A stretch of 64,000 bases of DNA, taken from Candidatus Multivorans sp. (lineage in GTDB: Bacteria; Acidobacteriota; Thermoanaerobaculia; Multivoradales; Multivoraceae). Positions 4,838-58,126 of this stretch are shown here, piece after piece. How positions within the stretch are numbered: position 1 is the stretch's first letter; each line of letters begins with the position of its first letter. Under the pieces are notes generated by a model, which was given only the letters and a program-made list of their open reading frames with translations, did not search any database and had not been told where the DNA came from. The translations under genes were made by a program, and so were the position numbers. The stretch is from positions 455,787 to 519,786 of the forward strand of contig OZ242040.1 in the NCBI GenBank assembly GCA_965205095.1. Reading direction: 5' to 3'.

Positions 4838-7377
4838 CCGATCCACTCGACGATCTGAAGCGCGTCTTTGACCGCGCGACGCCCGAGCCGGACGCCGAGA
4901 GGCGGAGGGCGAACCTGGCCCGCGCGCAGCAGCTCTTCGACCGGAACCAAGGTCTTGAGGCCGAGCGCCGTCGTACTGACGACCGCCCCAATACCTGGGC
5001 GGGCATTCAACACGGAGTACGACACATGCTCAACGTAGTGACGCCCCGACCTGTCCTGGCTGCCGCCGGCGTCCTGGCTGCCGTCGGCCTTTCCGCGCTC
5101 CTGGTGACGGTGCTTCGGGACGCGACGCCGCGACCGCCGGTGGTCGTCGCCGATGCCGGCGTCGCGCCGGAATCTGTGACCGCGCTTCAGGGCGCTGTCG
5201 AAGAAGATACGGAGGCGACCGACTTGGCCGGCGTGTCCCCAGGTGGAGGCGATCGTCTGGATCAGGCGGAAACCCCTGCCTTCACGGAGCGAGGAGAGAC
5301 GGATTCGGCTACGCCCCGGAGCGAAGTCCCGGTGGCGACGGATGCTGCGGCGTCAGCCCCGGAGCAGGTTGCGGCGGCGACGGTTGCCGGACGCGTGGTT
5401 GACGCCGGGGGCGAGGCTCTGCCGGGCGTCAGCCTTACGCTATCTAGCGACAGCGGCGATTGGTTCGCGCTGACGGACAACAGCGGCGACTATCGCTTCC
5501 CGGATGTCGCCCCAGGAGACTATTCGGTGAAGGCGGAGCTCCCGGGCCTGGGAGAAGCAGATGCCGTGGTTCGCGCTGCGGCGGGAGAGCGAAGATCGAT
5601 CGACTTCAGGTTGAGGGCAGCGGTCACGGGCGGGCCGGAGACCGTCACGGGGATGGCGCCTGTGACTGTCACGGGAGAGAAGCCGATAGTGGACAAGTTC
5701 AACGTTGCGGCCAGCGGCCTGGCAGCGGTCGCCGAAGCGGTGCCGCGCGCCAAACGGGTGCCGCCCGCTGAACCTGTGGTGGAGGCCGAAGCTGTGGTCG
5801 CCGAGTCCCTTGCGAGCGCGTTCGTGCCGCGGCGAGCCGCCCGGAGTGCCGCCGGCACCACCCGGACGTACCACGGCGTGATCAACGCCGCTGAACCGCC
5901 ACCACCGGAGGGTGTTGGTCCGGCGCCGGACGTGACGATCGCCCAGTCCGCCAACACTGAAGCCTTCGCCAACGAAGACGCCAGTCCGGTCAAGGTCACG
6001 AGCGAAGAGCCGGTTTCGACCTTCTCGATCGACATCGACACCGCCAGCTACTCGGTCGTCCGTTCCTCGCTGACGAACGGCTACCTGCCGGCGTCCGAAT
6101 CGGTGCGGATCGAGGAACTGATCAACTACTTCCCGTACGCCTATCCGCCGCCCGAGGGGTCCGGCGCGCCGTTCCGGCCGACGGTGACCGTCTCCGAGAC
6201 GCCGTGGAACGCGGACACGCTGCTGATGCAAATCGGCATCCAGGGCCGGCAGCCGGCGATGGAAGACCGGCCGCCGCTCAACCTCGTCTTCCTGGTCGAC
6301 ACGTCGGGTTCGATGGACCGGCCGAACAAGCTGCCGCTGCTCGTGCAGTCCTTCCGCCTGATGGTCGGCCAGCTCGATCCCGCCGACGAGGTCGCGATCG
6401 TCGCCTACGCGGGCAGCGCGGGCCGCGTGCTGGACCCGACCCCCGCCGCCGATCGCGGCGCGATTCTGGCGGCGCTCGACCGGCTCCACGCGGGGGGGTC
6501 AACGGCCGGGGCGGCAGGCATCCAGTTGGCCTACCGGGTTGCCCGGGACATGGCGGCGGAAGGCGAGGTCACGCGGGTCGTCCTGGCGACCGACGGCGAT
6601 TTCAACGTCGGCATCTCCGACCCCGAGCAGCTCGAGAGCTTCATCGCCCGCCAGCGCGACAGCGGCGTCTACCTTTCGGTGCTCGGCTTCGGCCGCGGGA
6701 ACCTGGACGACGCAACGATGCAGGCGCTGGCCCAGAACGGCAATGGCCAGGCGGCCTACATCGACACGCTCGCGGAGGCGCAGAAGGTCCTCGTCGACCA
6801 GCTTGTGGGCACCCTGTTCCCGATCGCGAACGACGTGAAGATCCAGGTCGAGTTCAACCCGGCCACGGTGGCCGAGTACCGCCTGATCGGCTACGAGACC
6901 CGGGCGCTGAGGCGCGAGGACTTCAACAATGACCGGGTCGACGCCGGCGAGATCGGCGCCGGACACGCGGTCACCGCGATCTACGAGGTGACGCCGGTGG
7001 GCTCGCCCGCCGTGTTGCACGACGCCCTGCGCTATGCCGGTCGCGCGGCCGAGCCGCCGGTGGCGGCCGAGATCCCCGCAGGGTCTCGGGAGCTCGCCTT
7101 CCTGCGGCTGCGCTACAAGGAGCCGGGCCGGGACACCAGCGAACTCGTCGAACTGCCGATCGCTCGCGACGTGGGCGAGGCCGGCGCCGATCAGCGGTTC
7201 GCCGCTGCGGTCGCCGGGTTCGGGCAGTTGCTGCGGGCCGGCGCCTACACCGGCGACTGGACCTGGGCCGACGCGATCGGGCTCGCCGAGGCGAACACCG
7301 GCAACGACCGGTTCGGTTACCGGCGCGAGGCGGTGACCCTGATGCGTCTCGCGGAGAGCCTGGCCGAAGCCGAGTAG
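4837..7377 (+). CDS. membrane-anchored anti-sigma-like protein with a CarboxypepD_reg-like domain and a C-terminal YfbK-type von Willebrand factor A (vWA) domain
   Basis: An ATGA overlap couples it to the sigma factor stop. There is one TM helix (VLAAAGVLAAVGLSALLVTVL), a YfbK-like N-terminal signature (FSIDIDTASYSVVRSSLTNGYLP..VRIEELINYF) and a vWA MIDAS motif (LVFLVDTSGSM). Confidence 0.75.
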   Translation, partial: TDPLDDLKRVFDRATPEPDAERRRANLARAQQLFDRNQGLEAERRRTDDRPNTWAGIQHGVRHMLNVVTPRPVLAAAGVLAAVGLSALLVTVLRDATPRPPVVVADAGVAPESVTALQGAVEEDTEATDLAGVSPGGGDRLDQAETPAFTERGETDSATPRSEVPVATDAAASAPEQVAAATVAGRVVDAGGEALPGVSLTLSSDSGDWFALTDNSGDYRFPDVAPGDYSVKAELPGLGEADAVVRAAAGERRSIDFRLRAAVTGGPETVTGMAPVTVTGEKPIVDKFNVAASGLAAVAEAVPRAKRVPPAEPVVEAEAVVAESLASAFVPRRAARSAAGTTRTYHGVINAAEPPPPEGVGPAPDVTIAQSANTEAFANEDASPVKVTSEEPVSTFSIDIDTASYSVVRSSLTNGYLPASESVRIEELINYFPYAYPPPEGSGAPFRPTVTVSETPWNADTLLMQIGIQGRQPAMEDRPPLNLVFLVDTSGSMDRPNKLPLLVQSFRLMVGQLDPADEVAIVAYAGSAGRVLDPTPAADRGAILAALDRLHAGGSTAGAAGIQLAYRVARDMAAEGEVTRVVLATDGDFNVGISDPEQLESFIARQRDSGVYLSVLGFGRGNLDDATMQALAQNGNGQAAYIDTLAEAQKVLVDQLVGTLFPIANDVKIQVEFNPATVAEYRLIGYETRALRREDFNNDRVDAGEIGAGHAVTAIYEVTPVGSPAVLHDALRYAGRAAEPPVAAEIPAGSRELAFLRLRYKEPGRDTSELVELPIARDVGEAGADQRFAAAVAGFGQLLRAGAYTGDWTWADAIGLAEANTGNDRFGYRREAVTLMRLAESLAEAE

Positions 7378-7421: not shown

Positions 7422-8246
7422 TTAGTTGGCGCCCAGGAAGCCCCGCAGGCAGCGGGTCACGGCGCCGGGCGCCTCGGCCATCAGCATGTGGCCAGCGTCG
7501 GCCACGGTCACGAAGCCGGCGCCGCCATCGCTGCCGCGGATCCGCTCGGCGAGCGCGCGGCCGGCCCTCGGCGGCGTCATCCGGTCCTTCGCGCCGGCGA
7601 CGACCAGCGTGGGGCAGGTGACGCCCGGGGCGCTCTCGCTGCCCTCCCATTCGTTGCAGGCGGCGAAGTCGCGGTGGAGCACTTCGGGCAGGCAGCGGTC
7701 GAGCAGCGCCATCGTCGACCCGAGCATCCAGAGTCCGGGAGACTCCGCGCCGCCGAAGTGGGCGCCGGTCCCGTGCCCGAAGGCGGCGATGAAGCGATGG
7801 GCGTTGAGCGGCCGTTTCAGGGTGTCCGCCAGCAACCCCGGGTTGACCCGCAGCGTTTCGCCGGCGCCGAGCAGAGCCAGCCGGCTCAACCGGCCGTTCA
7901 GCCGGGACGCCGCGTCGACCGCGATGCAGGCGCCCATCGAGTGACCGATGAGCGCGATGTCCTCGCTGCCCGCCCGTGCTGCCGCCGCTGCCGCGAAGTC
8001 GACGGTCCAGGCGGCGTAGTCCCCGATCGTCGTGATGGCGTCGAGGTCCTCTGACGCGCCGTGACCGGGCAGGTCGGGAGCGGCGACGTTCCAGCCGTGT
8101 TGAGCCAGCGACCGGGCCTGCAGCGCCCACACCGTGTGGTCGCTGCCGGCGCCGTGGAGCAGCACGGCCAGGGGCAGTCCTTCCTGCCAGGCGGAGCCGC
8201 CGGTACCGCAGTACGCCTTGCGGCCCTGGATCTCTAGTTCGGTCAT
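7422..8246 (-). CDS. alpha/beta hydrolase
   Basis: LHGAGSDHTVW oxyanion region, GHSMG nucleophile elbow and a C-terminal GH motif. Confidence 0.7.
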   Translation of the reverse strand: MTELEIQGRKAYCGTGGSAWQEGLPLAVLLHGAGSDHTVWALQARSLAQHGWNVAAPDLPGHGASEDLDAITTIGDYAAWTVDFAAAAAARAGSEDIALIGHSMGACIAVDAASRLNGRLSRLALLGAGETLRVNPGLLADTLKRPLNAHRFIAAFGHGTGAHFGGAESPGLWMLGSTMALLDRCLPEVLHRDFAACNEWEGSESAPGVTCPTLVVAGAKDRMTPPRAGRALAERIRGSDGGAGFVTVADAGHMLMAEAPGAVTRCLRGFLGAN

Positions 8247-31428: not shown

Positions 31429-33618
31429 GTGAGCCCCGCACATCCCAGCACGGAGCCACGGTCGACGAGAAGCGCCGGGCGCGTCGCGGTCCTCCTGCCC
31501 TGCCTCAACGAGGAGGCGACGATCGGCAGCGTCGTGGGGCAGTTTCAGACGGCCCTGCCCGAGGCCTCCATCTACGTCTGCGACAACGGTTCGGAGGACG
31601 GCACCGCCGCAGCCGCCCGCAGGGCCGGCGCCGAGGTCATCCTCGAGGAACGGCGCGGCAAGGGCCTGGCCGTCCGCCGCCTGTTCCAGGAAGTCGACGC
31701 CGATGTCTACCTGATCGCCGACGGCGACGGCACCTACCACGCCGCCAGCGCCGAGCGTCTCGTTTCCACGCTGGCCGGCCGCTACCTGGACATGGTCGTG
31801 GCGGTTCGCCGGAGCACGGAGCCCGGCGCCTACACGCCGATCCGCCGCCTCGGCAACCGCCTCTTCAGCCTGCTCGCCCGGTGGCGCTGCCACCGAACCG
31901 TCCGGGACCTGCTCTCCGGTTACCGCGCCTTCTCCCGCCGGTACGTCGACGCCTTCCCGGCCCGCTCGGACGGCTTCGAGGTCGAGACGGAGATGACCCT
32001 GTTCGCCGCGTCGGCGGGAATGGCCTGGGACGAGATCGAATGCCCGTACTTCGCGCGCCCGCCAGGGTCGCGAAGCAAACTGCACGCCTTCCGGGATGGA
32101 TTCCGGATCCTCCGAACACTGCTCTGGTCGCCGGCCGCGGCCGCGGGTGAGCAGCGCCTCGGCGCGTTGCGAGCCGCCGTCCTGGTGGCCACCGTAACGG
32201 TCGTCGCCACGGCCTCCTTCCTCGGCCTCAACTGGCTCGCGGCCAACGCCGATCCGGAGCCCGTTGCCGACGCTCTCCGGGCCTCGTACGAGCACCCGGA
32301 ACGCACGCTCAGGGACTCCGCCGAGCGCTTCAACGACTGCCTGCTGAGCCTGATGGCGCTCGACCGCGGCGGCACGACCGTCGAACGCACCGTCTCGCCC
32401 CGGCGCGTGTACCGCTACACCCGGCCCCAGCGCCCCTGCGACGCCCTCGAGCAGCGCCTCAGCCAGGGCGCCGTCGACGACTCCGACTACCTGACCGTCT
32501 TCTACCACCAGTACTGGGCCGGCCAGCGGGTGATGCTGCAGTGGCTGCTGCCGCCGCTCGGCGTCGACGGCCTGAGGCGGACGTTGCGGTTGCTGACGTT
32601 CGGCCTGCTCGGGCTCGGGTTCTTCGGTGCGTTGGGACGCATCGTCCTTCTCTTCATCGGCCGCGAGCCCGAAAGCAAGGCGGGCGGAGGCCGGCCGGAA
32701 GGCCGGCGCACCGACAGGGCGGCGCCGCGCCAGAGCGCCGGCAACTCGAGGCGCTGGCGCGAACACTTCTTCCAGGCGATGGCCCTCGCCGCTCTCTTCC
32801 TCTGCCTGTTCCTGTTCCTCGACCTCGACCGTCGCGCGGAGAGCTTCACAACCGGCGCCTCCAACATCCTGACGCTCGCCCTGCTCGTCGCGGTGCCGGC
32901 GTTCGGGATCGCCAACTGGAAGCCGGGACGCCAGGTCCTCCTCTTCGCCGGTTTCGGGGCCGCGATCGCCTACCACGAACTCCTCTTCGGCAGCGCCCTG
33001 ATCGGCCTGGCCTGCGTGCTCCTCGCCCTCGCCACGTCGCCGCCCCCGACCCACGCCACGGTCGCGGTCGCCCGGAGCTGGTGGCCCGCTCTCTTCCTGC
33101 GCTGCGGCGGCGCCTACGTCGGTTGCCTCAGCGCCGTCTTCCTGCTCCGCGTCGTCATCGCCGAGTTCGTGTTCAGGGAACCCGTGCTGTTCAAGTTCTG
33201 GGACCAGCTCACGCACCGGCTCTACGGAGCGCCCCGTAGCTCGATCCACCCGGACATCGACCCCTTCTACGCCTCCCGGCCGACCATGGAGAGGTTCCTC
33301 GAACGGCTCGGGAACAACCTGGGCACGGTCGGCTTCGGCTCAACCGCGGTCGCCCTCATCCTGATCGCCGGCACCGCACTGACCCTGATCGCCGCGACCG
33401 TCTTCGTCCTGAAACAGCGACGTTCCCTGGAAGAGCCCTGGCGCTGGCTCGGCGTTCTCGCCGCCGGCTGGTCCGTTCCCGCGTGGTACGTCGTCCTCTC
33501 TGCCCACGCGATGGCGCACGTCCCGGTGGCGATCCGCCTGCTGGCGCTGCCCTACGCGGCGGTGGCGGTGCTCATCGTGGGCGTTGCGGTGTTCGGCCGG
33601 CGGACGGAGGTTGTGTGA
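31429..33618 (+). CDS. family-2 glycosyltransferase fused to a large polytopic membrane domain
   Basis: The N-terminal GT2 domain (VAVLLPCLNEE..VCDNGSEDGT..ADGDGT) is followed by more than 10 predicted TM helices. A hydrophilic loop at aa 419-435 is encoded by a REP-like module. Confidence 0.65.
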   Translation: MSPAHPSTEPRSTRSAGRVAVLLPCLNEEATIGSVVGQFQTALPEASIYVCDNGSEDGTAAAARRAGAEVILEERRGKGLAVRRLFQEVDADVYLIADGDGTYHAASAERLVSTLAGRYLDMVVAVRRSTEPGAYTPIRRLGNRLFSLLARWRCHRTVRDLLSGYRAFSRRYVDAFPARSDGFEVETEMTLFAASAGMAWDEIECPYFARPPGSRSKLHAFRDGFRILRTLLWSPAAAAGEQRLGALRAAVLVATVTVVATASFLGLNWLAANADPEPVADALRASYEHPERTLRDSAERFNDCLLSLMALDRGGTTVERTVSPRRVYRYTRPQRPCDALEQRLSQGAVDDSDYLTVFYHQYWAGQRVMLQWLLPPLGVDGLRRTLRLLTFGLLGLGFFGALGRIVLLFIGREPESKAGGGRPEGRRTDRAAPRQSAGNSRRWREHFFQAMALAALFLCLFLFLDLDRRAESFTTGASNILTLALLVAVPAFGIANWKPGRQVLLFAGFGAAIAYHELLFGSALIGLACVLLALATSPPPTHATVAVARSWWPALFLRCGGAYVGCLSAVFLLRVVIAEFVFREPVLFKFWDQLTHRLYGAPRSSIHPDIDPFYASRPTMERFLERLGNNLGTVGFGSTAVALILIAGTALTLIAATVFVLKQRRSLEEPWRWLGVLAAGWSVPAWYVVLSAHAMAHVPVAIRLLALPYAAVAVLIVGVAVFGRRTEVV

Positions 33619-33764
33619 AATCTCGGAGCCAGGACCTTGAAATCTCGGAGCTACTCATCATGAGATTGCGGACTGGAGATTCAGAAATCTCGGAGCTAGT
33701 GATCTTGAAATCTCGGAGTACATTACCCGGAAATTTCGGAGTACACTAACCGGAAATCTCGGAG
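33617..33764. repeat. array of 6 direct repeats GAAATCTCGGAG (last four at exact 23-bp spacing) filling the intergenic region upstream of the DUF4143 ATPase
   Basis: Copies start at 33617, 33649, 33684, 33707, 33730 (GAAATtTCGGAG) and 33753. Confidence 0.75.
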
Positions 33765-33795
33765 TGCAACTGAGACTTCGGTTAGAGTCATCGAG

Positions 33796-34950
33796 ATGAT
33801 CGACCGGACCGAGTACCTCAGGCGAATGGCGACCGCCACGAAGCGATCGCCGGTCACGTCTCTGCTTGGACCGCGCCAGTGCGGCAAGACCACCCTGGCC
33901 CACAAGTTCGCTGCGACCCGCGCGGCAACCCTGTTCGACCTGGGATCGGAGGCGGACGTCCGGCGGCTCAGCAACCCCGAGCTGGTCCTGGGCGAGCTCG
34001 AAGGACTCGTCGTCCTGGACGAGATCCAGATCATGCCCCGCCTCTTCCGCGTCCTCCGCGTCCTTGCCGACCGGCCGGACTCCCACACGCGTTTCCTGAT
34101 CCTCGGCAGTGCGTCCCCGGAGATCGTGGGCGGCGCCGCGGAGTCGCTGGCCGGCCGGGTCGAGTTCATCGACATGACCGGCTTCGACCTGGCCGAGACC
34201 GGCGCAGCCGATCTGCGGAAACTCTGGCGGCGCGGCGGCTTTCCCCGCTCCTACCTTGCCTCTTCCGAAGCCGACAGCTCGCGTTGGCGCAGCGGGTTCC
34301 TCCGGACCTTCCTGCAAAGGGATCTCCCACAACTCGGTATCGCGATTCCTCCCGCAGCAATGCGGCGCTTCTGGACCACCCTGGCGCACTACCACGGCCA
34401 GATCTGGAACGCGGCCAAACTCGGCCGATCGATCGGCGTCTCGGACAAGACGGCTCGCCACTACCTCGACCTGCTGACCGGCGCCTTCATGGTCCGCCAA
34501 CTCCAGCCCTGGTTCGAGAACACGGCCAAGCGCCAGGTCAAGGCGCCCAAGACCTACATCCGCGACACCGGCCTCCTGCATTCGCTACTCGGCATCGGCA
34601 AGGACCAAGAACTCCTGGGTCACGCCCGCGTCGGCGCGTCCTGGGAGGGCTTCGCCATCGAGCAGGTCTTGAGCGCCCTCGGCCAACCCGATGCCTGGTT
34701 CTGGGCCACCCACGGCGGCGGCGAACTCGACCTGATGGTCCTTGCGCGCGGCCTCCGCATCGGCTTTGAAATGAAATTCAGCGAGGCGCCCAAGGTCACC
34801 ACGTCGATACGCAACGCAGCCGAAACGCTGGCGCTCGACCACCTCTTCGTCGTCTGCCCCACGCGGCACACCTACCCGGTGACCGAGAAGATCACTGTGC
34901 TGTCGGCAGGCGACATTCCCGGCTTGCGCGACCGGGTCGAGGCTCTGTAA
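33796..34950 (+). CDS. AAA+ ATPase with C-terminal DUF4143 (COG1373-type)
   Basis: Walker A LLGPRQCGKTTLA, Walker B VVLDEIQ, and a conserved DUF4143 region (...KTYIRDTGLLHSLLGI...). Confidence 0.75.
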   Translation: MIDRTEYLRRMATATKRSPVTSLLGPRQCGKTTLAHKFAATRAATLFDLGSEADVRRLSNPELVLGELEGLVVLDEIQIMPRLFRVLRVLADRPDSHTRFLILGSASPEIVGGAAESLAGRVEFIDMTGFDLAETGAADLRKLWRRGGFPRSYLASSEADSSRWRSGFLRTFLQRDLPQLGIAIPPAAMRRFWTTLAHYHGQIWNAAKLGRSIGVSDKTARHYLDLLTGAFMVRQLQPWFENTAKRQVKAPKTYIRDTGLLHSLLGIGKDQELLGHARVGASWEGFAIEQVLSALGQPDAWFWATHGGGELDLMVLARGLRIGFEMKFSEAPKVTTSIRNAAETLALDHLFVVCPTRHTYPVTEKITVLSAGDIPGLRDRVEAL

Positions 34951-35035: not shown

Positions 35036-35126
35036 ATGACTCGACCAACCGAAGTCAAACCGCGCAACGGATTCAAGCTCTGGCTCCGCTTCTCTGACGG
35101 TGCCGAGGGTGTCGTTGACCTCTCTA
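35036..35126 (+). pseudogene. DUF2442 N-terminal fragment (about 30 aa, truncated)
   Basis: MTRPTEVKPRNGFKLWLRFSDGAEGVVDLS matches the conserved DUF2442 N-terminus. The family similarity ends where the convergent gene begins. Confidence 0.45.
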
Positions 35127-35519
35127 CCCCTCAGCGGGCGATTCGTCTTCGTAGAGCGCAGGATCCGGGTCGACCTCCACCATCTTGCCGTTCTCCACGA
35201 CGAGAACCGTCGTGCCGTGCCGGTGGGCGTCTCTGTGCGCGCGGCGGACAGCGCGCTCCATCGCGGCAGGAACCGCCTGCATGTCCGGATCGTCGAGCTT
35301 GGATACGGGAAGCTGCTCTTTCTCCGGCCTCACGGGTTTATGCCCTCCTCGACCAAGATCAGTCGACGACCTCGCCGGTCGACGACCTGCCAGGAGTCTA
35401 CGAGATCCCGGTAGACGTTCCGGAAGTTCGCGACGCTTCTGTCGAAGCGCCGTCGCGAAGGTGGTCTTCCCGGCTCCGTTCGGCCCGGCGATCATGATGA
35501 TCTTGCGCTGGGCTGGCAT
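35124..35519 (-). CDS. small P-loop NTPase (zeta-toxin / COG4185-like Walker A); possibly degraded
   Basis: N-terminal KIIMIAGPNGAGKTTFATAL Walker A. The middle of the ORF is low-complexity and Arg-rich, which suggests decay or frameshift. Confidence 0.4.
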   Translation of the reverse strand: MPAQRKIIMIAGPNGAGKTTFATALRQKRRELPERLPGSRRLLAGRRPARSSTDLGRGGHKPVRPEKEQLPVSKLDDPDMQAVPAAMERAVRRAHRDAHRHGTTVLVVENGKMVEVDPDPALYEDESPAEG

Positions 35520-39428: not shown

Positions 39429-41432
39429 CTACGCCGCCGTCTCCTGCTGGGCGTACTGAAGCTGGTACAGGCGCCAGTAGACGCCGCGGAGCTCCAGGAG
39501 TTCGTCGTGGGTGCCGTGTTCGCAGATGGCGCCGTGGTGAAAGACGTAGATGCGGTCGACGTCCTTGATCGTCGACAGGCGGTGGGCGACGACGATCGAG
39601 GTCTTGCCTTCCACGAGGTGGCGCAGGGCGTCCTGGATCAGGGCCTCGGTTTCGGTGTCGACGCTGGAGGTCGCTTCGTCGAGGAGCAGGAGTTGCGGCT
39701 CGCGGGCCAGGGCGCGGGCGAAGGAGAGCAGTTGCCGCTGGCCGGTCGAGAAGTTCACGCCGCGTTCGCTGACCTTGTGCGCCCAGCCGTTCGGCAGCCG
39801 CTCGATCAGGTCGTCGACGTGGGTGGCGCGCGCCGCCTCGTCCACCACGTTGTCCGCGACGTCGCGGCCGAGGACGATGTTGTAGCGGAGGTCGCCGTCG
39901 AACAGGAAGACGTCCTGGAGCACGAAGGCCAGCCGGCGCCGCAGTTCGGGTTTCGGGATGTCGCGGATGTCCCTGCCGTCGACCCGGATCGATCCCTCCT
40001 GCAGCTCGTAGAGGCGGGCCAGCAGCTTGAGCGTCGTCGTCTTCCCGGAGCCCGTGTGGCCGACGATCGCGACCCGCTCGCCCGCGGCGACCCGGAAGGA
40101 GACATCGCGCAGCACGGTCTCCGCGCCGTAGGCGAAGGTGACGCCGTCGAATTCGACCTCGCAGCCGTCGGGCTCGGCGGCGGTCTTCGTCACGCCCGTT
40201 GTCGCCGCTTCGCGGCGCGCGTCTCCGCGGAAGCCGGCGGGGGCGCCGGCGCACCCGGTGTGCGCGGAGGCCGCGGCGTCGGCGTCCTGCGTGGCGCCGG
40301 CGCACCCAGTGTGCGCGGCGGCCGCGTCGGCGGCGTCCGCAGGCTCCTCGGCCCTGCCCTCCGGTTCCCGCGGCTCGTCCAGCAACTGGAACACGCGCTC
40401 GGCACTCGCCATGGACGACTGCATCACGGAGTACTTCGCCGACAGGTCCATCAGCGGCCGGAAGAACCGGCTCATGTAGTCGGAGAACACGTAGATCGTG
40501 CCCAGCGTGATGCCGCCCAAGCCCATCATCTGCGCTCCGTACCAGAAGATGAGCGCCCGGGTCAGGTTCGTCGCCAGATCGACGGTCGAGAACAGCAGCG
40601 CGTCGTAGCGGATCGAGCGCAGCCAGGAATCCCGGTGAGAGGCGTTCTCGCGACTGAAGTCCTCGAAGTTGCGCCGTTCGCGGGCGAACAACTGGACCAC
40701 CTTCATGCCGGAGATCGTCTCCTGCAGGTGGGCGTTGAGGCGTGCGATCTTGACCCGGACCTCCCGGTAGGCCTCCCGTACCTTGTAGCGGAAGATCGCC
40801 GCCGCGATGCCCAGTACCGGCACCAGGGCCAGCGCCGCCAGCGCAAGCCGCGGGTCGATCGCGAACAGCATGGTGAGGATGACGACCATGACGAACACAT
40901 CGGCCACCATCGCGATGACGCCCGCCGAGAACATCTCGGCCAGGTGCTCCAGGTCGTTCGTGAGCCGCGTCACGAGGCGGCCGACCGGGTAGCGGTCGAA
41001 GAAGCGCATCGGCAGCCGCTGGACGTGATCGAACAGCGTCCTGCGAACGTCCCGGACCGTGCGCTGGCCGAGCGAGATCATCGTGAAGGCCCGCAGCCAG
41101 TCCATGATCAACGTGACGATCGAGATGGCGAACACCAGCCCGAACATCCAGGCCAGGGGCCCGAGTCCCAGCCGCGGCGCGACGAAGGGCGCCATCCAAC
41201 CCACCTCCGTGGTCGCCTCTCCCTCGGTCAGGTAGTTCAGCGCGGCGCCGACGACGAGCGCCGGCATCAGCTCGAGGACGGCCCGCGGCGGAATCAGGGC
41301 GAAGTTGAGCCCGATCCAGCCGCGGTAGGGCCGCATGAACGGCCAGAGCCGCTTGATCAGCTCCGTGTCGTAGACCTTGCCGAGGTCCCGCTCACGACCA
41401 AGCTGGGCAGCCTCGCTCCGCTCCTCGCTCAC
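39429..41432 (-). CDS. ABC exporter half-transporter (TMD-NBD) with an about 70-aa low-complexity insertion in the TMD-NBD linker
   Basis: Six TM helices, then Walker A GHTGSGKTT, the signature LSTGQRQLL, and Walker B LLLLDEATS. The linker aa 355-425 (ADAADAAAAHTGCAGA..ASAHTGCAGAP) is encoded by REP-like DNA. Confidence 0.85.
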   Translation of the reverse strand: MSEERSEAAQLGRERDLGKVYDTELIKRLWPFMRPYRGWIGLNFALIPPRAVLELMPALVVGAALNYLTEGEATTEVGWMAPFVAPRLGLGPLAWMFGLVFAISIVTLIMDWLRAFTMISLGQRTVRDVRRTLFDHVQRLPMRFFDRYPVGRLVTRLTNDLEHLAEMFSAGVIAMVADVFVMVVILTMLFAIDPRLALAALALVPVLGIAAAIFRYKVREAYREVRVKIARLNAHLQETISGMKVVQLFARERRNFEDFSRENASHRDSWLRSIRYDALLFSTVDLATNLTRALIFWYGAQMMGLGGITLGTIYVFSDYMSRFFRPLMDLSAKYSVMQSSMASAERVFQLLDEPREPEGRAEEPADAADAAAAHTGCAGATQDADAAASAHTGCAGAPAGFRGDARREAATTGVTKTAAEPDGCEVEFDGVTFAYGAETVLRDVSFRVAAGERVAIVGHTGSGKTTTLKLLARLYELQEGSIRVDGRDIRDIPKPELRRRLAFVLQDVFLFDGDLRYNIVLGRDVADNVVDEAARATHVDDLIERLPNGWAHKVSERGVNFSTGQRQLLSFARALAREPQLLLLDEATSSVDTETEALIQDALRHLVEGKTSIVVAHRLSTIKDVDRIYVFHHGAICEHGTHDELLELRGVYWRLYQLQYAQQETAA

Positions 41433-50985: not shown

Positions 50986-51987
50986 TCGCTCCTCGGGGCG
51001 CTCCTGGCCGGACTGCTCGGGTTGGCGATCCCCGCGGAGGCCCACGAGGTCCGTCCCGGCTACCTCGAACTGAACGAGGTGGAGCCCGGAACTTTCGAGG
51101 TCTTCTGGAAGCAGCCCCGCCGCGGCGCGCTCCTGCTCCTGCTCGACCCGGTACTGCCCGAACATTGCACCGAGACCGCCCGGCACCCGCCGGAGCACCT
51201 GGCCGGCGCCCTGGTCGAACGCTGGACCGTGGAGTGCGAGGCGGCGGACGGCGACCCGGACCGCATGTTCCACGGCGAGACCTTCGGCATCGACGGTCTG
51301 GAACGCACCCTGACGGACGTCCTGCTCCGGATCAGCTTCGCCAACGGCGACAGCCTCACCCAGTTGCTCCGGCCGGAAGAGCCCTCGGTCACCGTGGACC
51401 GGGAGGCCGCCGGCAACGCCTGGCCCTACTTCCGGCTCGGCGTCGAGCACCTGGTGTTCGGCTTCGACCACATCCTGTTCGTCATCGGCCTGCTCTTCTA
51501 CGTCCGCGATCCCTGGCGCCTGGTCGGCGTGATCACGTCGTTCACCCTCGCCCACAGCATCACGCTGGCTCTGTCGTCCCTGGACGTCGTCAGGATCTCC
51601 CCCGCGCCGGTCGAGGCGGTGATCGCCCTGTCCATCCTGTTCCTGGCGGTCGAGCTGCTGCGTCCCGAGGATCAGCGATCGCCGATCACGACGAAGAGCC
51701 CGTGGCTCATCGCCTTCGCCTTCGGCCTGCTGCACGGCTTCGGCTTCGCCGGGGCCCTGGCCGAGATCGGCCTGCCGCAACGGGCGATCGCCATGGCGCT
51801 CTTCCTGTTCAACGTCGGCGTCGAGGTCGGCCAGCTCCTCGTCGTTGCGGTGGTGCTTGCCCTGCTGGCCCTGGTCAAGCGAGTCGGCATCGTCGTCCCG
51901 GAACTCATCGTGCGGGCGCCGATCTACGCCACCGGGATCATCTCGGCGTTCTGGTTCGTGGAGCGGATGGGTCGGATCGTCGTCTGA
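50974..51987 (+). CDS. HupE/UreJ family protein (Ni/Co transporter family) with an N-terminal periplasmic extension
   Basis: GTG start and signal peptide. The C-terminal six-TM HupE core contains conserved His motifs (FGFDHILF, LLHGFGFAGAL). Confidence 0.65.
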   Translation: MVSLSLLGALLAGLLGLAIPAEAHEVRPGYLELNEVEPGTFEVFWKQPRRGALLLLLDPVLPEHCTETARHPPEHLAGALVERWTVECEAADGDPDRMFHGETFGIDGLERTLTDVLLRISFANGDSLTQLLRPEEPSVTVDREAAGNAWPYFRLGVEHLVFGFDHILFVIGLLFYVRDPWRLVGVITSFTLAHSITLALSSLDVVRISPAPVEAVIALSILFLAVELLRPEDQRSPITTKSPWLIAFAFGLLHGFGFAGALAEIGLPQRAIAMALFLFNVGVEVGQLLVVAVVLALLALVKRVGIVVPELIVRAPIYATGIISAFWFVERMGRIVV

Positions 51988-52117
51988 TCGAGAAGTCGAC
52001 GCGCCTTCCAGACCCGGCCGGAGCACCCGGCCATGGGAGCCAACAGCGCGGACCTGCAGTGAGATCAGAATCGGAAACCAACGCGAGAACCCGCGTCAGG
52101 AGAGTCAGGAGAGCCCC

Positions 52118-55100
52118 TTGAGGAACGGCCTTGAAGCTGGGAGTCCCGCTGTTTTTCTTGGGCACCAAGACTGGGCGGGCCCAGAGAGCCCACTGGCCGA
52201 CTTCATTCGGCGCGAGACGAAGCGCACGGTCGACTCCTACCGTAGCCAACCGAACCTCGTCAGGGAACACGCGAACCAGGAGCACGACACCGCCCACGGC
52301 GGCTACGCGGACCGACAGATCATCGAGCTCGTGCAGAACAGCGCGGACGCCTTGCTTCGAGCCGAGACCGGCTCCCGCAGGATCAGCATCAGATTGTCTG
52401 GAGGCTGGCTCTACTGCGCGGACGACGGCCTTCCGGTTGATGAGAACGGAGTCACGGCCCTCATGTTCGCCCACTTGTCGAGCAAGAGGGACACCGCAAC
52501 CATTGGCAGGTTCGGCCTCGGGTTCAAGTCGGTGCTCGGCGTCACCGATGCCCCCGAGTTCTACAGCCGTTCCGTTTCGTTCCGGTTTGGCCGGGAACAC
52601 GCGAGGCGAGTGATCGACGCGGCAACCGGGCGCGAGTTCACCGACTATCCGGTTCTGCGGCTTCCCGAACCACTCGACCCGTGTCGGGCCGAAGAGGATG
52701 ACACGCTCGGGGAACTGATGAGCTGGGCGACGAACATCGTTCGCCTGCCGCTCCTTGAGCGAGGAAAGGGGGCTCTCAGACAACAGATCAAGGACTTTCC
52801 GGCAGAGTTCCTGCTTCTCGTCCATCATGTCAGGGAGTTGCACCTCGAAGATTGCCAGTCCGTACGGCGTCTCACGCTTCGTCAACAGGCGGACGAGGTG
52901 TTCGCACTGCTCCAGGCGGACGTCTCGCAGGGAACGGAGGACACCAGCAGTTGGCGCATCTTCCGGACCATGCACACGCTGTCCCAGAGTGCCCGCGACG
53001 ACCGTCGTTCGCTCGACGACAGCAACGAGGTTCCGATCACGTGGGCCGCGCCGCTCGACGGGGGCCGAAACGTAGGACATTTCTGGGCCTACTTTCCTAC
53101 GCGGACGGCGAGTCTCGTCGGCGGCATTCTGAACGCACCCTGGAAGACGAACGAGGACCGCCAGAACCTGCTGCCAGGCCCCTACAACGACGAGATCATC
53201 CGGGCCGGGGCGAAGATGGTCGCTGCCAAGATCGCCGCGCTCCGGACCGAGGACGATCCGGCCCGCCACCTCGACCTGCTGCCGCGCCGACACGAAGCCG
53301 GCGACACGGACCAGGCAGGACTCCTGCGACGCGAACTGTTCGGCCACCTTTCGCGGCGCCCGATCCTGCCCGACCAGAACGGTTACGTGCAGAGACCTGA
53401 CGGGCTGCGCTATCCCCCGAGCGAACTCGCTTCCGGCAACCGGATCCATGACGCCCCGTTCGAACGGTGGGCAGCATACGAGGACCGGCCGACGGATTGG
53501 CTTCACCACGCTGCACTGACCCGCGAGCGGCTCTCCCGAATCGACCGCCTGTATCCGGGCAACCACTGGGAGCCTCGCGCCCCTCGCACCTCTCTGCGGG
53601 AGTGGCTGGAGGCCCTGGTCGAAGGCAGTTCGGGTGAGCAGGCAATCGCCGCGTCGATGGCCGCGATTCGCGCCGCGGAAGCCATTCCCCAGTCGGCACG
53701 CCAAGGGAAGGACCTGGGCAACATCGTCCTGACTGCCGACAACGCATGGAAGGCGGTCGATCCCGACTCGGTCTTCCTGCCTCCCAGAACGGCTTCGGTA
53801 GACGGAGAAGAAGCGTCGACGGTTCACCGGCAACTCGCCGAGGACCCAACCACCAGAACGGCGCTCCGGGCGCTGGGTTTGCGAACGCCAAGCCCCCAGA
53901 GCACGTTCAGGCGGGCGGCCCGCGGGCTAACGGGCAGCCAAGCAAAACCTGCCGACCGGCAACTGAGGGAGTTCTGGAACGCGGCCCGCGAACTGCCGGC
54001 AAAGGAGGCGCTCGCCATTCTCAGAGAGTTCGTTCCGAAGCGGTTCGCCCTGCACCAGGAGGCTTGGCTCCGCCGCCGGTTGCGTGTGCGATCTCGGGCG
54101 AGAATCTGGTGCCCCCTGGACACCGTCCTGCTGCCAGGACCGATCGTATCGGCCAGAGACAATCGAGATCGCTGCGCAACCATAGAGCTCGACTTCCACG
54201 CCCCAGAAAAGGAGTTGCTCCGCGATCTGGGTGCCACGGACCGGCCAGTTGCCGACCATGACCTTCGTTTCGCCACGGGCTACGACGATCACCACGGGCA
54301 ATGCGTGACGGAGTACAAAAAGAGGCCCGACCTACCCCACAGCCCTCGACGCGGATACCTTCAGTTCGGCTCATGGCCAAGAGCGACCGGTCAGCGAGAC
54401 TTCAAGCCGTCCACCGAAGGGGCCGGGCCCCTCGACGTTCTTGCCCGTCTCTCACCCGAGGCAGCCGCCCGCTACACGGACGAGATGCTCAAGCTCGAAG
54501 CGACGTTCAGGCGCTGGACGATGGGACACGACGGCAACAACGGTCGGAACTACCCAAGTGCGAAGTTCTGGTCGTTGACGGTTCCCGTACTGCGAAAGCA
54601 CGGCCGCATCAGGACCTCCGCCGGCGTTGTGCCGTTCAGAGACGCTCTCGGGCCGAACCCGAGGAACGCCGAGGCACAGCAAGCCCTCTGGCAACACGCG
54701 AACGTCGACCGGATTCGAGACACGTTCGACCTTCACGACCCGAGACCGGAGTTCATCGGAGAAGCGGAGCCCGTCCCCCTGACCGACGTCTGGCCGGGTC
54801 TCGCCGTGGTACTGCCGACGAACAGGTCGGATTGCCTGCTGGTTCGCTGCGAGCGAATCTTGGTTGCGGGTCTAGGCGTCGACTGCAGGGCCAGCCACTT
54901 GAGCGTCTACCTCGCCGACTCCGTCGCACACGAGGAAGAGCAGCTTCGGCTGGTCTCCAGGGAATTGGAGCTACATCTCACCGAAGACACATTCCAGCAA
55001 ATCCTCAGCCGGACGACACCCAAGGAAGTCCAGGCCCGCCACGACGCGATCCGCCAGATGTCGTCCGACGCCGACCGGTTGCTGGCAGCCGTCGGCGAGA

Positions 55101-56646
55101 AGGCCCTTCGCAACCGGCTCCCCAAGATGCTGCTCGCCATGCTTGAAGTCGATGGTGGGAATCTGAGCGGCAAGAGGCTTGCGGAGGCGGCCATCGCGAC
55201 TTGGCACACGGACGCACTGCGGCGGCACCGTGAAGCGCTCCACGACCTCGATCCCCCGAAACAGTGGGCCGGATCAAGACGGGCGGTCGCGTTCGTCCAA
55301 GCCCTCGGCTTCACAGAAGACTGGGCCGGCAAGCGAACCCGCAAGCGTGATCCGTGGCTGGAAGTTCGGGGTCCAGAGAGGCTCCCGCCATTACACGACT
55401 ATCAGGAACGGGTAGCCGAGAATCTCCGGACACTGCTGGGAGGCGAAGCGGCCGCTGGAGGCGAACGCCGGGCGATGATCAGCTTGCCGACCGGTTCCGG
55501 GAAGACAAGGGTCGCGGTGCAGGCGATCGTCGAAGCGATACGGGAGGACGACTTCCCCGGTGGAGTGCTCTGGGTCGCTGACCGCGACGAGCTCTGCGAG
55601 CAAGCGGTCGAGGCGTGGCGGCAAGTGTGGTCGAGCATCGGCGACTCCGGCGAGCGCCTGCGGATCTCCCGAGCGTGGGCTGGGCAGGAAAGTCCACGTC
55701 CGTTGACGACGCGGCACGTCGTTGTCGCCTCGATCCAAACACTCCAGGCGCGGCTCGGACACACGGACTACGCGTTTCTGGCGGATCTTCAGCTCGTCGT
55801 CTTCGACGAAGCGCATCGGTCCATCGCACCTACCTACACATCCGTGATGGAGGAAGTCGGCCTGACCCGCTACCAGAAGCCTGACGAGCCGTTCCTAGTC
55901 GGCCTCACCGCCACGCCCTACCGCGGGAGAGACGAAGAGGAGACGGCAAGGCTGGTCAATCGCTACGGGAAGCGACGACTTGACGACGGGGCGTTTCCCG
56001 ATGACGAGCCAATCGCCGTCGTTCAGCACCTGCAGAAGATGAGAATCCTCTCTCAGGTGGACCACGCGACGATCCCGGGCGACACCTTCCGCTTGCGCGA
56101 CGACGACCTTCGGCTCATCCGCCAAGAGGGGCAGAAGGACGGGCGATGGAACCTACCCTGGCTCCCGCAACTGGTAGAAGACCGTATCGCCAGCAGCACC
56201 ACCCGCACGAAGCGGATCCTCGACGCGTTCGAGAACCACATCGAACCCGGCTGGCCAGTCCTTGTCTTCGCCACGTCGGTGGAACACGCGCAGACGCTCG
56301 CCGCGCTCCTAGAGGACCGAAGATCCCGTCGCGCGCCATCAGCGGAGACACCAGGACTGCCACCCGTCACCATGTCGTCGACGAGTTCCGGACGGGGCGC
56401 GTCCAGGCGCTCGTGAACTACGGCGTGTTCCGCGAGGGCTTCGATGCCCCGAAGACCCGCGCGATCCTCGTCGCCCGCCCGGTCTACAGCCCGAATCTCT
56501 ACTTCCAGATGATCGGCCGCGGCTTGCGAGGACCGCGGAACGGCGGTACCGACCGCTGCCTGATCCTGAACGTGGAGGACAACATCGAGAACTTCGGGCC
56601 GAAGCTCGCCTTCTCCGACCTGGACTGGCTCTGGGAACCGCGCTGA
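52118..56646 (+). CDS. giant (about 1500 aa) fusion of an N-terminal GHKL / sacsin-HSP90-like ATPase, an uncharacterised central region and a C-terminal SF2 DEAH-box helicase; a 1-nt frameshift near 56317 splits it across two frames (pseudogene or sequencing error)
   Basis: TTG start after a double AGGAG. Bergerat-fold motifs ELVQNSADA (N box), CADDGLPV (G1) and IGRFGLGFKSV (G2). Helicase motifs I LPTGSGKT, II VVFDEAHR, III GLTATP; motifs V/VI (QMIGRGLRG) lie in the +1 frame, 56318..56646. Confidence 0.65.
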
Positions 56647-56701
56647 GACGTCGGGCCTCGCCGGAAACAGAGGAGACACGTCCGGTGGGGTCAACGTGCA
56701 T

Positions 56702-56784
56702 AACCTTCCGATTGGCCGGCCTACAACCTTTCAATCAGGCGACCCCTAACCTTGCAATCAGACGGCGCCCAACGTTACGATCAG
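56702..56784. repeat. array of 4 direct repeats AACCTTnCnATCAG at exact 23-bp spacing, ending 4 bp before the start codon of the second DUF4143 ATPase
   Basis: Copies at 56702 (AACCTTCCGATTGG), 56725 (AACCTTTCAATCAG), 56748 (AACCTTGCAATCAG) and 56771 (AACGTTACGATCAG). Confidence 0.75.
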
Positions 56785-56788
56785 CCGC

Positions 56789-58126
56789 ATGTCGGCACCG
56801 ATCTTCTACCCGCGCAGTGCCGAGGAGCGCCTGGCCGAAGCGCTGGAAGACTCGCCGGTCGTGCTCATCCACGGGCCGCGGCAGTGCGGCAAGACGACCC
56901 TCGCCCAATACGCCTGCGCTTCGCACGACCCGACCCGGGGCGGGGACCCCGCAGCCTGGAGCGGCTCCCGGCCGACGCGGGGGCCGAGGCACCGGGACTA
57001 CGCCTACATCAGCTTCGACAACGCGGTCGTCCGAGACGGCGCCCGAGCCGATCCCATCGGCTTCGTCGCCGACCTGCCCGAGCGCGTCATTCTCGATGAG
57101 GTCCAGCACGTTCCAAGCCTGTTCGAAGCACTCAAGATGGAGGTCGACCGGCGCCGGGTGCCCGGCCGTTTCGTCCTCACCGGTTCCACCAACGTGCTGC
57201 TCCTCCCGGCGCTGTCCGAGTCCTTGGCGGGTCGCCTGCAGATCGTGCCGCTGCATCCGCTGGCGCAGTACGAACTGGCCGACCCGGCAGTGCGCGGTGA
57301 CTCTTACTCCAGCACCGGATTCCTGAGCACCCTGTTCGGCCACGGATTCGAGGTCCGTCGAACCGAGCGGCTCGGAAGACAGCTCCTCGACCGGATCGTC
57401 GCCGGCGGATTTCCCGCGGCGCTGCTCCGTCCAACCGCCCGACGGCAGGCCGACTGGTATCGCGACTATGTCGAGACGCAGATCCAGCGCGACGTTCGCG
57501 ATATGACGCGCATCAGATCGCTCGACGCTCTGCCCGCACTCCTTGGTGCGACGGCATCGCAGACGGCCAGACTGTTCAACCTCAGCGACCTTGCAGCGCC
57601 CTTCAGCCTGAGTCGACCGACGATCGGCGACTACATCACGCTTCTCGAGAGGCTCTTTCTGCTGGAACGACTCCCGCCCTGGCACAGCAACCGGCTGAGC
57701 CGGCTGATCAAGACCCCCAAGCTGCACGTCGGCGACACGGGCCTTGCCTCGGCGCTGCTGGGCATTGATGCCGAATCGCTCAACGCCGACCGCTCCCTGC
57801 TGGGACGGTTTCTGGAGACGTTCGCCTTCCAAGAACTCCGACGCCACGCAAGTTGGCACGACCCGTCCATGAGGTTCTTTCACTTTCGCGACAAGGAAGG
57901 CGCCGAAGTGGACATCGTGATCGAGCGCGGCTCACGGTCAATTGCCGGAGTGGAGGTCAAGGCCGCGGCCACAGTCACACGGGCTGACTTCCGGGGTCTG
58001 CGAAAACTCGCCAGAGCCGTCGGCAAGCGCTTCGTCCGCGGAGTCGTGCTCTACGACGGCGAGGCCAGTACGGGTTTCGGGGATGGCATGTACGCAGTGC
58101 CGGTTCGCAGGCTGTGGGAAATGTAG
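56789..58126 (+). CDS. AAA+ ATPase with C-terminal DUF4143 (COG1373-type), paralog of 33796..34950
   Basis: Walker A LIHGPRQCGKTTLA, Walker B VILDEVQ and the same C-terminal block (KTPKLHVGDTGLASALLGI). It carries an extra about 25-aa Gly/Pro/Arg-rich insert after the Walker A. Confidence 0.75.
   Translation: MSAPIFYPRSAEERLAEALEDSPVVLIHGPRQCGKTTLAQYACASHDPTRGGDPAAWSGSRPTRGPRHRDYAYISFDNAVVRDGARADPIGFVADLPERVILDEVQHVPSLFEALKMEVDRRRVPGRFVLTGSTNVLLLPALSESLAGRLQIVPLHPLAQYELADPAVRGDSYSSTGFLSTLFGHGFEVRRTERLGRQLLDRIVAGGFPAALLRPTARRQADWYRDYVETQIQRDVRDMTRIRSLDALPALLGATASQTARLFNLSDLAAPFSLSRPTIGDYITLLERLFLLERLPPWHSNRLSRLIKTPKLHVGDTGLASALLGIDAESLNADRSLLGRFLETFAFQELRRHASWHDPSMRFFHFRDKEGAEVDIVIERGSRSIAGVEVKAAATVTRADFRGLRKLARAVGKRFVRGVVLYDGEASTGFGDGMYAVPVRRLWEM

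Follow-up and report, generated by a model that had tools for sequence, protein, structure and literature searches.

Plasmid iterons, such as those of pSC101, F, R6K, RK2, and P1, are direct repeats of about 17 to 22 bp with a period of about 22 bp. They adjoin the gene of the protein that binds them and are used for autoregulation. DnaA and archaeal Orc1/Cdc6 are AAA+ proteins with a C-terminal helix-turn-helix or winged helix that form head-to-tail oligomers, and the sites that they bind, the DnaA boxes and ORB elements, are same-orientation repeats next to the binder's own gene. The ends of Tn7 and Mu carry several protein-binding sites of about 22 bp in direct orientation; a transposon end requires transposase genes and, at the opposite terminus, a set of sites in inverted orientation. 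The controller proteins (C proteins) of restriction-modification systems are small Xre-type HTH dimers that bind palindromic C-boxes and control a separate nuclease gene. The genes for these controllers are autoregulated and commonly leaderless (PMC2632904).

Here, we describe an array of direct repeats in front of a gene for a DUF4143 ATPase in a window of 64,000 nucleotides, by which we mean the whole stretch of Candidatus Multivorans DNA that was analyzed. DUF4143 is catalogued as a domain of unknown function. PDC-S01, an ATPase fused to a PD-(D/E)xK domain, is reported to be the fourth most common defense candidate in prokaryotes; it transfers between domains of life and is a candidate rather than a validated system (PMC12988326). 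One PDC-S01 representative gave no protection of E. coli B against T4, T5, or T7. We searched the literature on DUF4143, AAA_14, COG1373, and PDC-S01 (PF13173, PF13635) and found no description of an upstream array, a promoter, or DNA-sequence specificity. The array is a real and strongly conserved cis-element that is undescribed as far as the searched literature shows.

By likeness of form, the array comes closest to iterons and to the repeat arrays of DnaA or Orc1. Like iterons, the array consists of phased direct repeats of about 17 to 22 bp beside the gene of its candidate binder. Unlike iterons, it belongs to a single chromosomal gene that comes without a Rep-family initiator, an AT-rich unwinding element, or DnaA boxes, and its repeats appear to serve at the same time as −35 and −10 boxes. 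The best fold matches of the ATPase, which are weak (TM of about 0.25), include Orc1/Cdc6. However, the array has no origin features of the kind found with DnaA and Orc1/Cdc6, the ATPase has an extra PD-(D/E)xK nuclease domain, and there are tens of thousands of DUF4143 ATPase copies, often several per genome. The array also differs from the ends of Tn7 and Mu, since it has neither an inverted set at the far end nor transposase genes. By likeness of function, the closest analogue would be an autoregulated leaderless C-protein gene. Like the genes for C.PvuII, C.AhdI, and C.Esp1396I, the ATPase gene is defense linked and portable and has repeated putative operator sites about 17 to 18 nt from the start codon. 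Unlike the C proteins, the presumed regulator is a 445-aa AAA+ ATPase-nuclease from another protein family, and unlike the C-boxes, the sites are three to seven head-to-tail units at 23 bp with a clear −10 box.

RESULTS

A phased array of 17-nt units abuts the start codon of the ATPase gene

The first-pass annotation of this DNA had placed four direct repeats of 14 bp ahead of the ATPase gene. Reading of the sequence and a repeat search of the window confirmed all four start points and the steps of 23/23/23 between them (Table 1), and the search returned a three-step family with 23/23 spacing at the array. The copies are real, but the 14-bp unit is 3 bases too short: comparative data gave a true unit of 17 nt, AAccTTnCrATyrGCCG, which ends in GCCG and is followed by a 6-nt unconserved spacer. 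Positions 56700 to 56790 of the window therefore read ...AT AACCTTCCGATTGGCCG gcctac AACCTTTCAATCAGGCG acccct AACCTTGCAATCAGACG gcgccc AACGTTACGATCAGCCG c ATG. The array does abut the ATG at 56789, as had been reported; the gap is 1 nt rather than 4 bp, because the 17-nt unit 4 ends at 56787. Against the earlier 14-mer, copies 1 to 4 have 2, 0, 0, and 1 mismatches, and copy 1, the poorest fit to that 14-mer, is nevertheless perfect against the family consensus.

When up to 2 mismatches were allowed, the 14-mer had 6 matches in the whole window compared with 1.5 expected, and 0 of 100 shuffles reached 6. We also measured self-identity at lag 23, which was 0.714 for the 86-nt array. The comparison value, taken as the maximum over lags 15 to 35, was 0.412 ± 0.044 in 12,723 other windows of this DNA. 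A self-identity of 0.714 or more was observed in only 4 of these, all of them in a second array at about 33.67 kb. The periodicity of the four units is not due to chance.

Since its tandem repeats immediately precede an ORF, the array might be imagined to work as RNA, whether as a structured leader, a small RNA, or a CRISPR-like element, or to be a neutral slippage duplication. Both ideas are scarcely credible. The array folded as RNA no better than its shuffles (z-score, +1.05), and an Rfam search with E values up to 10 gave nothing relevant. The sequence, the phase, and the copy-specific substitutions are kept across phyla, which excludes a neutral origin. A CRISPR array was rejected on its dimensions: the unit of 17 nt and spacer of 6 nt compare with required repeats of at least 23 nt and spacers of at least 26 nt.

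TABLE 1 Coordinates of the array, the two ATPase genes, and neighboring features in the window
Feature	Position	Strand	Remarks
Giant helicase gene	51845-56646		Upstream of the ATPase gene; sacsin-like ATPase domain, ResIII, Helicase_C
Putative operator unit 1, AACCTTCCGATTGGCCG	56702-56718	+	Perfect match to the family consensus
Putative operator unit 2, AACCTTTCAATCAGGCG	56725-56741	+	
Putative operator unit 3, AACCTTGCAATCAGACG	56748-56764	+	Holds −35-like TTGCAA, 56752-56757
Putative operator unit 4, AACGTTACGATCAGCCG	56771-56787	+	Holds −10-like TACGAT, 56776-56781
AAA_14 + DUF4143 ATPase gene	56789-58126	+	445 aa; Pfam, PADLOC PDC-S01
Second array, GAAATCTCGGAG	33617-33783	+	6 good and 2 degenerate copies; 22- to 23-bp spacing
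Second AAA_14 + DUF4143 ATPase gene	33796-34950	+	384 aa; 27% identical to the first

A second DUF4143 gene in the window is also preceded by an array

Apart from the first array, just one part of the window is similarly periodic. This is the second array, and its unit is unlike that of the first. Tandem Repeats Finder flagged it as a 23-bp array at 33616 to 33765. Good copies of GAAATCTCGGAG start at 33617, 33639, 33684, 33707, 33730, and 33753, with degenerate copies at 33662 and 33772. The second array ends in a TAGAGT −10 box, 7 nt ahead of the ATG at 33796. The product of the gene that follows scored above the gathering score for both AAA_14 and DUF4143 and matched the PDC-S01 profile with an E value of 8.4e-77. 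Because these distant paralogs share the period and the position of their arrays while their units are unrelated, the comparison points to the array before a DUF4143 gene as a family trait and not a peculiarity of a single locus.

A DUF2442 pair of small genes (35036 to 35497) lies directly past the second ATPase gene, and its counterpart at another locus (L160, 2738 to 3275) has DUF2442 and DUF4160. The two genes look like a toxin-antitoxin pair. Elsewhere in the window, at 40242 to 40338, Tandem Repeats Finder reported a 51-bp tandem duplication (1.9 copies, 91% match).

Sequence, phase, and orientation of the units are conserved in orthologs

We scanned one genome per species for the 445-aa ATPase and obtained 79 loci, or 80 with the window. 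The proteins are 57 to 93% identical and come from at least 12 phyla. These include Acidobacteriota (the closest being Candidatus Multivorans, class Thermoanaerobaculia), Gemmatimonadota, Latescibacterota, Nitrospirota, Omnitrophota, Chloroflexota including Dehalococcoidia, beta- and deltaproteobacteria, Myxococcota, Bacteroidota, Ignavibacteria, Planctomycetota, Bipolaricaulota, Hydrogenedentota, and others. The 110 bp preceding the start codon showed their strongest autocorrelation at a lag of 23 in almost every locus and at a lag of 22 in three.

We then derived a position matrix from the ortholog upstream regions (A-A-c-c-T-T-n-C-r-a-T-y-r-G-C-C-G) and scanned 852 kb of the 80 loci on both strands. 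Matches within 250 bp upstream of the gene made up 294 of 330 on the plus strand and only 1 of 27 on the minus strand; the raw count is inflated because the matrix was trained on the regions counted, and the strand bias, the spacing, and the contrast with the flanks are unaffected by this. Of 214 intervals between successive matches, 190 measured 23 bp and 16 measured 22 bp. The loci carry three to seven units, with at least three units in 73 of the 80. The first-pass annotation had named phased direct repeats before orthologs as the check on its reading, and we found them, in the same orientation and across phyla.

Within the period, 17 positions are conserved and 6 are not: information falls to 0.36 bits at position 18 and to 0.04 to 0.14 bits at positions 19 to 23. 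The best-conserved bases of the unit are C8, G14, C16, and G17, none of which is a promoter-hexamer position. In an alignment of ten acidobacterial loci, the units were nearly invariant and the spacers drifted. Most acidobacterial relatives have a fifth unit, which the window does not.

Two observations on individual loci can be added. In Dehalococcoidia, two loci (L058 and L072) have an orphan pair of units at 7608 to 7647, 23 bp apart and about 210 bp past the stop codon of the ATPase gene, and no DUF4143 gene comes after it. Just one of the 79 ortholog loci comes from a cultured isolate, Thiomonas delicata DSM 16361 (L069; NZ_LT592171.1, 792342 to 805613), where three units spaced at 22 bp are accompanied by a TACAAT −10 box. 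Since it is cultured and carries the array-promoter module, it is a practical experimental host.

The last two units contain a predicted promoter

In the window, the hexamers TTGCAA and TACGAT are separated by an 18-nt spacer, and there are 7 nt from TACGAT to the A of the ATG. These promoter hexamers, which had been missed in the first-pass annotation, sit inside units 3 and 4.

We ranked the units of the orthologs by their distance to the start codon and made position-specific counts. Position 7 of the last unit is A in 45 of 47 loci, which gives TACAAT or TACGAT (TAnnnT), and this TAnnnT ends 6 to 8 nt before the start codon in 43 of 47 loci. Among units other than the last, TAnnnT was found in 8 of 138. 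In the penultimate unit, position 7 is G in 39 of 46 loci, giving the −35-like TTGCAA, and TTGCAA with an 18-nt spacer is the usual −35 partner in orthologs. The third unit counted from the gene has T at this position in 32 of 45 loci. For 56 loci, the start codon was confident. A TAnnnT ends 5 to 10 nt upstream of the start in 48 of them, compared with 36 of 1,600 random control positions, and a Shine-Dalgarno-like sequence is present in only 2. In 29 loci, a stand-alone −10 box, such as tgtgTATAAT, takes the place of the last unit at the same position. A consensus promoter scan of the window made no call because TTGCAA and TACGAT together score 8/12, below the threshold of 9; orthologs with TACAAT score 9/12 in 24 of 48 loci.

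Judged from these counts, the last unit is adapted to a predicted −10 box and the penultimate unit to a predicted −35 box. Because a Shine-Dalgarno sequence is absent, the ATPase mRNA is probably leaderless. With the −35 box in site 3 and the −10 box in site 4, the first transcribed base would be the A of the ATG at 56789 or one adjoining it. At the sequence level, the locus has the features of a leaderless cassette, namely, operator-type repeats that overlap the predicted promoter, a −10 box placed 6 to 8 nt ahead of the start codon, and the lack of a Shine-Dalgarno sequence. We also considered whether the 23 bp simply reflects promoter geometry (6 + 17). This was ruled out: the spacer is 18 nt, and promoter-distant arrays keep the period.

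The ATPase is the candidate binder of the array

The ATPase gene can start only at the ATG at 56789, as its frame is closed by a stop at 56747 and has no start codon before this ATG. The protein scored 79.7 bits for AAA_14 (cutoff, 27) and 153.2 bits for DUF4143 (cutoff, 28.1) and matched the PADLOC PDC-S01 profile PDLC04790 with an E value of 2.2e-151. Walker A (GPRQCGKTT) and Walker B (VILDE) are intact, and the C-terminal region has the PD-(D/E)xK nuclease motif (E343, D375, and E389-x-K391). Residues 44 to 68 (56918 to 56992) form a lineage-specific Pro/Gly/Arg-rich insertion, with a GC content of up to 87%, that separates the Walker A helix from the strand after it; it is modeled at a pLDDT of <50 and is absent from the second ATPase.

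Between the Walker and nuclease motifs, at about residues 262 to 315, lies a putative MarR-like winged helix with the pattern ...N-x-S-x-L-A-x-x-L-G-V-S-x-x-T-V-x-x-Y-L-x-L-L.... The turn and the start of its recognition helix vary between ATPase subfamilies. A profile of this middle region matched the MarR-family protein PA3341 (2fbh) over the helix-turn-helix plus wing with an E value of 0.004. The next-ranked matches, at E values of 0.05 or weaker, were mostly HTH regulators (DesR, TtgV, RacA, AtxA, and HipB). The first structure model has a helix-helix-helix-strand-strand order over the putative winged helix, in a region with a pLDDT of <50. In both AlphaFold models, the AAA+ core and the nuclease domain are good and the winged-helix segment has a pLDDT of <50. 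A search of PDB sequences with the whole ATPase found nothing, and Foldseek returned weak AAA+ matches only (clamp loaders, ORC4, and archaeal Cdc6/Orc1; TM of about 0.25 on a mediocre model). A DNA-binding domain in the ATPase is thereby suggested by a weak sequence similarity.

Next to the ATPase gene, no other ORF is common to more than nine loci, and those nine are an acidobacterial clade with a downstream AbgT transporter gene. Because no neighboring gene is conserved, the ATPase is the only linked candidate binder. By eye, motif variants seem to follow variants of the recognition helix, as in the pairing of LTRQTIHDY with TAGCGATCAGCCG. In a partial Mantel test of motif against recognition helix that controlled for the rest of the protein, r was 0.107 (127/2,000 permutations), which is not significant. 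Therefore, this covariation is inseparable from shared descent.

Could another host regulator, or an alternative sigma factor, be the protein that binds these sites? The ATPase is a putative binder, and the units do contain promoter-like hexamers, which would suit a protein of either kind. However, within the 64-kb window the motif is restricted to this array, and in the 852 kb of loci it is nearly confined to the ATPase upstream regions. It travels with the ATPase gene across at least 12 phyla with no linked regulator gene, the same-genome paralog has a different motif, and the four best-conserved bases lie outside the promoter hexamers. We consider a binder other than the ATPase improbable. 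Cooperative binding by a regulator or by the ATPase itself, as first proposed, gained support from the phasing in about 73 of 80 orthologs, the array of the paralog, the lack of a linked gene, and the winged-helix segment. The array is most likely bound by the gene's own product through its putative MarR-like winged helix.

The wider family uses direct arrays and palindromes

Close relatives of the second ATPase (75 to 83% identity) have four to five direct GAwATCTCGGAG units at 22 to 23 bp. Its distant relatives (52 to 65% identity; 80 metagenome loci, L080 to L159) have a palindrome and not a direct array. This palindrome, TGAAAATTCGGA-TTGACA-TCCGAATTTTCA, has its center on the −35 box; TATAAT comes next and then, 6 to 7 nt on, the ATG. 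Its half-site is similar to the direct unit of the second array in the window, but the layout differs. We observed a strong inverted repeat in 43 of 70 relatives of the second ATPase compared with 36 of 335 control windows. TAnnnT comes after this inverted repeat in 36 loci and ends 6 to 7 nt before the start in 26 of those 36.

Homologs of the ATPase are found on 360 plasmids, and we compared plasmid-borne homologs with 23 to 46% identity. Direct arrays are present in Roseivivax (four units at 22 bp), in Sulfitobacter (23 to 24 bp), and in Microvirga and Rhizobium B21/90 (TwwACATTTCrCC at 23 bp). Palindromes are present in Moraxella bovis, with 19-bp arms abutting the ATG, in Thermus oshimai, and in Rhodobacterales and Rhizobiaceae, where the palindrome is CCTTGCAA...TTGCAAGG. 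The additional paralogs inside ortholog loci have palindromes too, and a few upstream regions of the family showed nothing obvious. At loci L173 to L175 and L177, which are on the Rhodobacterales and Rhizobiaceae plasmids (26 to 29% identity), the inverted repeat CCTTGCAA(N17-19)TTGCAAGG ends 1 nt before the ATG. The CCTTGCAA/TTGCAAGG half-site equals positions 3 to 10 of the window unit. This likeness could be due to shared recognition or merely to a −35-like TTGCAA core.

At least four subfamilies whose unit sequences are unrelated share a period of 22 to 23 bp, and this extends to arrays that lie about 60 nt from the start codon. As a general rule, DUF4143 ATPase genes carry subfamily-specific repeats over a usually leaderless promoter, and the 22- to 23-bp array is one recurrent layout.

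These observations also bear on a different explanation, in which the array is an assembly platform. Here, 23 bp would be the pitch at which protomers follow one another, head to tail, in an AAA+ filament or spiral, and the nuclease would be stored on its own promoter. PDC-S01 proteins would form sequence-specific assemblies like those of ORC and DnaA; if invading DNA competed for them, or an infection cue arrived, the gene would be derepressed and the armed PD-(D/E)xK nuclease released or activated. The shared period of unrelated units in at least four subfamilies would fit this explanation, as would the arrays whose period cannot be dictated by promoter geometry at their distance of about 60 nt to the start codon, and the presence of three to seven units per locus. 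The best fold matches include archaeal Cdc6/Orc1 bound to origin DNA besides clamp loaders and ORC4, and the presence of plasmid DNA goes with induction of a homolog in Thermus (PMC4406477). However, the fold matches have a TM of about 0.25 on a mediocre model, and the oligomerization is hypothetical. Many family members have a single palindrome, and because of this the array is not required for the function of the family. We regard an assembly platform as rather unlikely, though less so than binding by another host protein.

The array and gene form a module at a chromosomal locus

The locus in the window is syntenic over 7 kb with nine Acidobacteriota genomes and is a chromosomal site in Thermoanaerobaculia. 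Pairs of loci from different MAGs, mostly of different species, have 86 to 95% DNA identity across the array and gene. The stretch shared in such pairs runs from about 90 to 280 bp upstream of the start to 20 to 40 bp past the stop, often with nothing shared beyond it. One MAG has three 1.55-kb copies of the module (L025, L028, and L029) with 95% identity, and the flanks differ on one of the three contigs. Locus L052 has two copies, at 6001 and about 10890, which are 4.8 kb apart and have an array each.

The giant helicase encoded upstream matches PADLOC TmtA (Tiamat) over its N-terminal third. Its gene is frameshifted in the window, with ORFs at 51845 to 56416 and 56146 to 56646; it is intact in L004, split in L001, and absent from L003 and L014. 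The junction of the helicase deletion in L014 is exactly at 56702, the first base of the array, and in L003 homology picks up again at about 56726. We also looked for a viral link. A search with narrow peptide and DNA patterns gave only 2 homologs in IMG/VR, and none of 2.9 million viral contigs matched as a two-unit array.

It had been suggested from the sequence that the repeats mark a replicon or mobile-element origin, and direct repeats of about 22 bp do resemble plasmid iterons and the end sites of Tn7 and Mu. The occurrence of the module in different flanks, its several copies in some genomes, and the homologs on 360 plasmids would also be in keeping with replication-origin iterons or with the end of a transposon or mobile element. 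The locus itself speaks strongly against this suggestion, and we now hold it to be very unlikely. There is no AT-rich unwinding element, the lowest GC (0.53) being inside the array itself, and DnaA-like boxes occur at chance frequency, none of them within 12 kb. We found no Rep, transposase, or integrase partner gene, no sites in inverted orientation at the gene's other end, and no downstream cluster of sites. The syntenic chromosomal position in Thermoanaerobaculia, the specialization of the last units as a predicted promoter, and the lack of matches to such arrays in the viral contigs, as searched with the narrow patterns, point the same way.

DISCUSSION

On balance, and with moderate confidence, we favor the reading of the array as an autoregulatory operator fused to the leaderless promoter of the ATPase gene. 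The ATPase would recognize the units as operator sites through its own winged helix. As it accumulated, it would fill the sites cooperatively, head to tail, in the manner of AAA+ protomer contacts. Occupation of units 3 and 4 would cover the −35 and −10 boxes and turn the gene off, and the upstream units would add cooperativity through head-to-tail AAA+ contacts. Such negative feedback would keep a potentially toxic ATPase-nuclease low and buffered. The array and the gene together would be a portable cassette after horizontal transfer, with no need for a host regulator or a Shine-Dalgarno sequence. We infer the sign of the regulation (repression), the cooperativity, and the transcription start from the sequence of the promoter region, and the upstream units could instead activate. 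In Thermus, a DUF4143 gene was 6.6-fold up when plasmid DNA was present (PMC4406477). This rise is compatible with a regulated promoter and proves nothing more.

The exact-phase conservation of an array of sites at the DNA level across more than ten phyla is unusual in itself. If the array is an assembly platform after all, it would represent an undescribed sensing and expression logic for a very common uncharacterized defense candidate. Under the autoregulatory reading, a single gene with its own operator and promoter, and with no need of a ribosome-binding site, may be expressible after transfer between phyla or domains. The DUF4143/COG1373 ATPases number tens of thousands and are without a described function, ligand, or regulation. 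The array gives this large family a candidate DNA ligand, with a 17-bp site, a register, subfamily variants, and a promoter architecture, and a defined 92-bp DNA makes the family directly testable.
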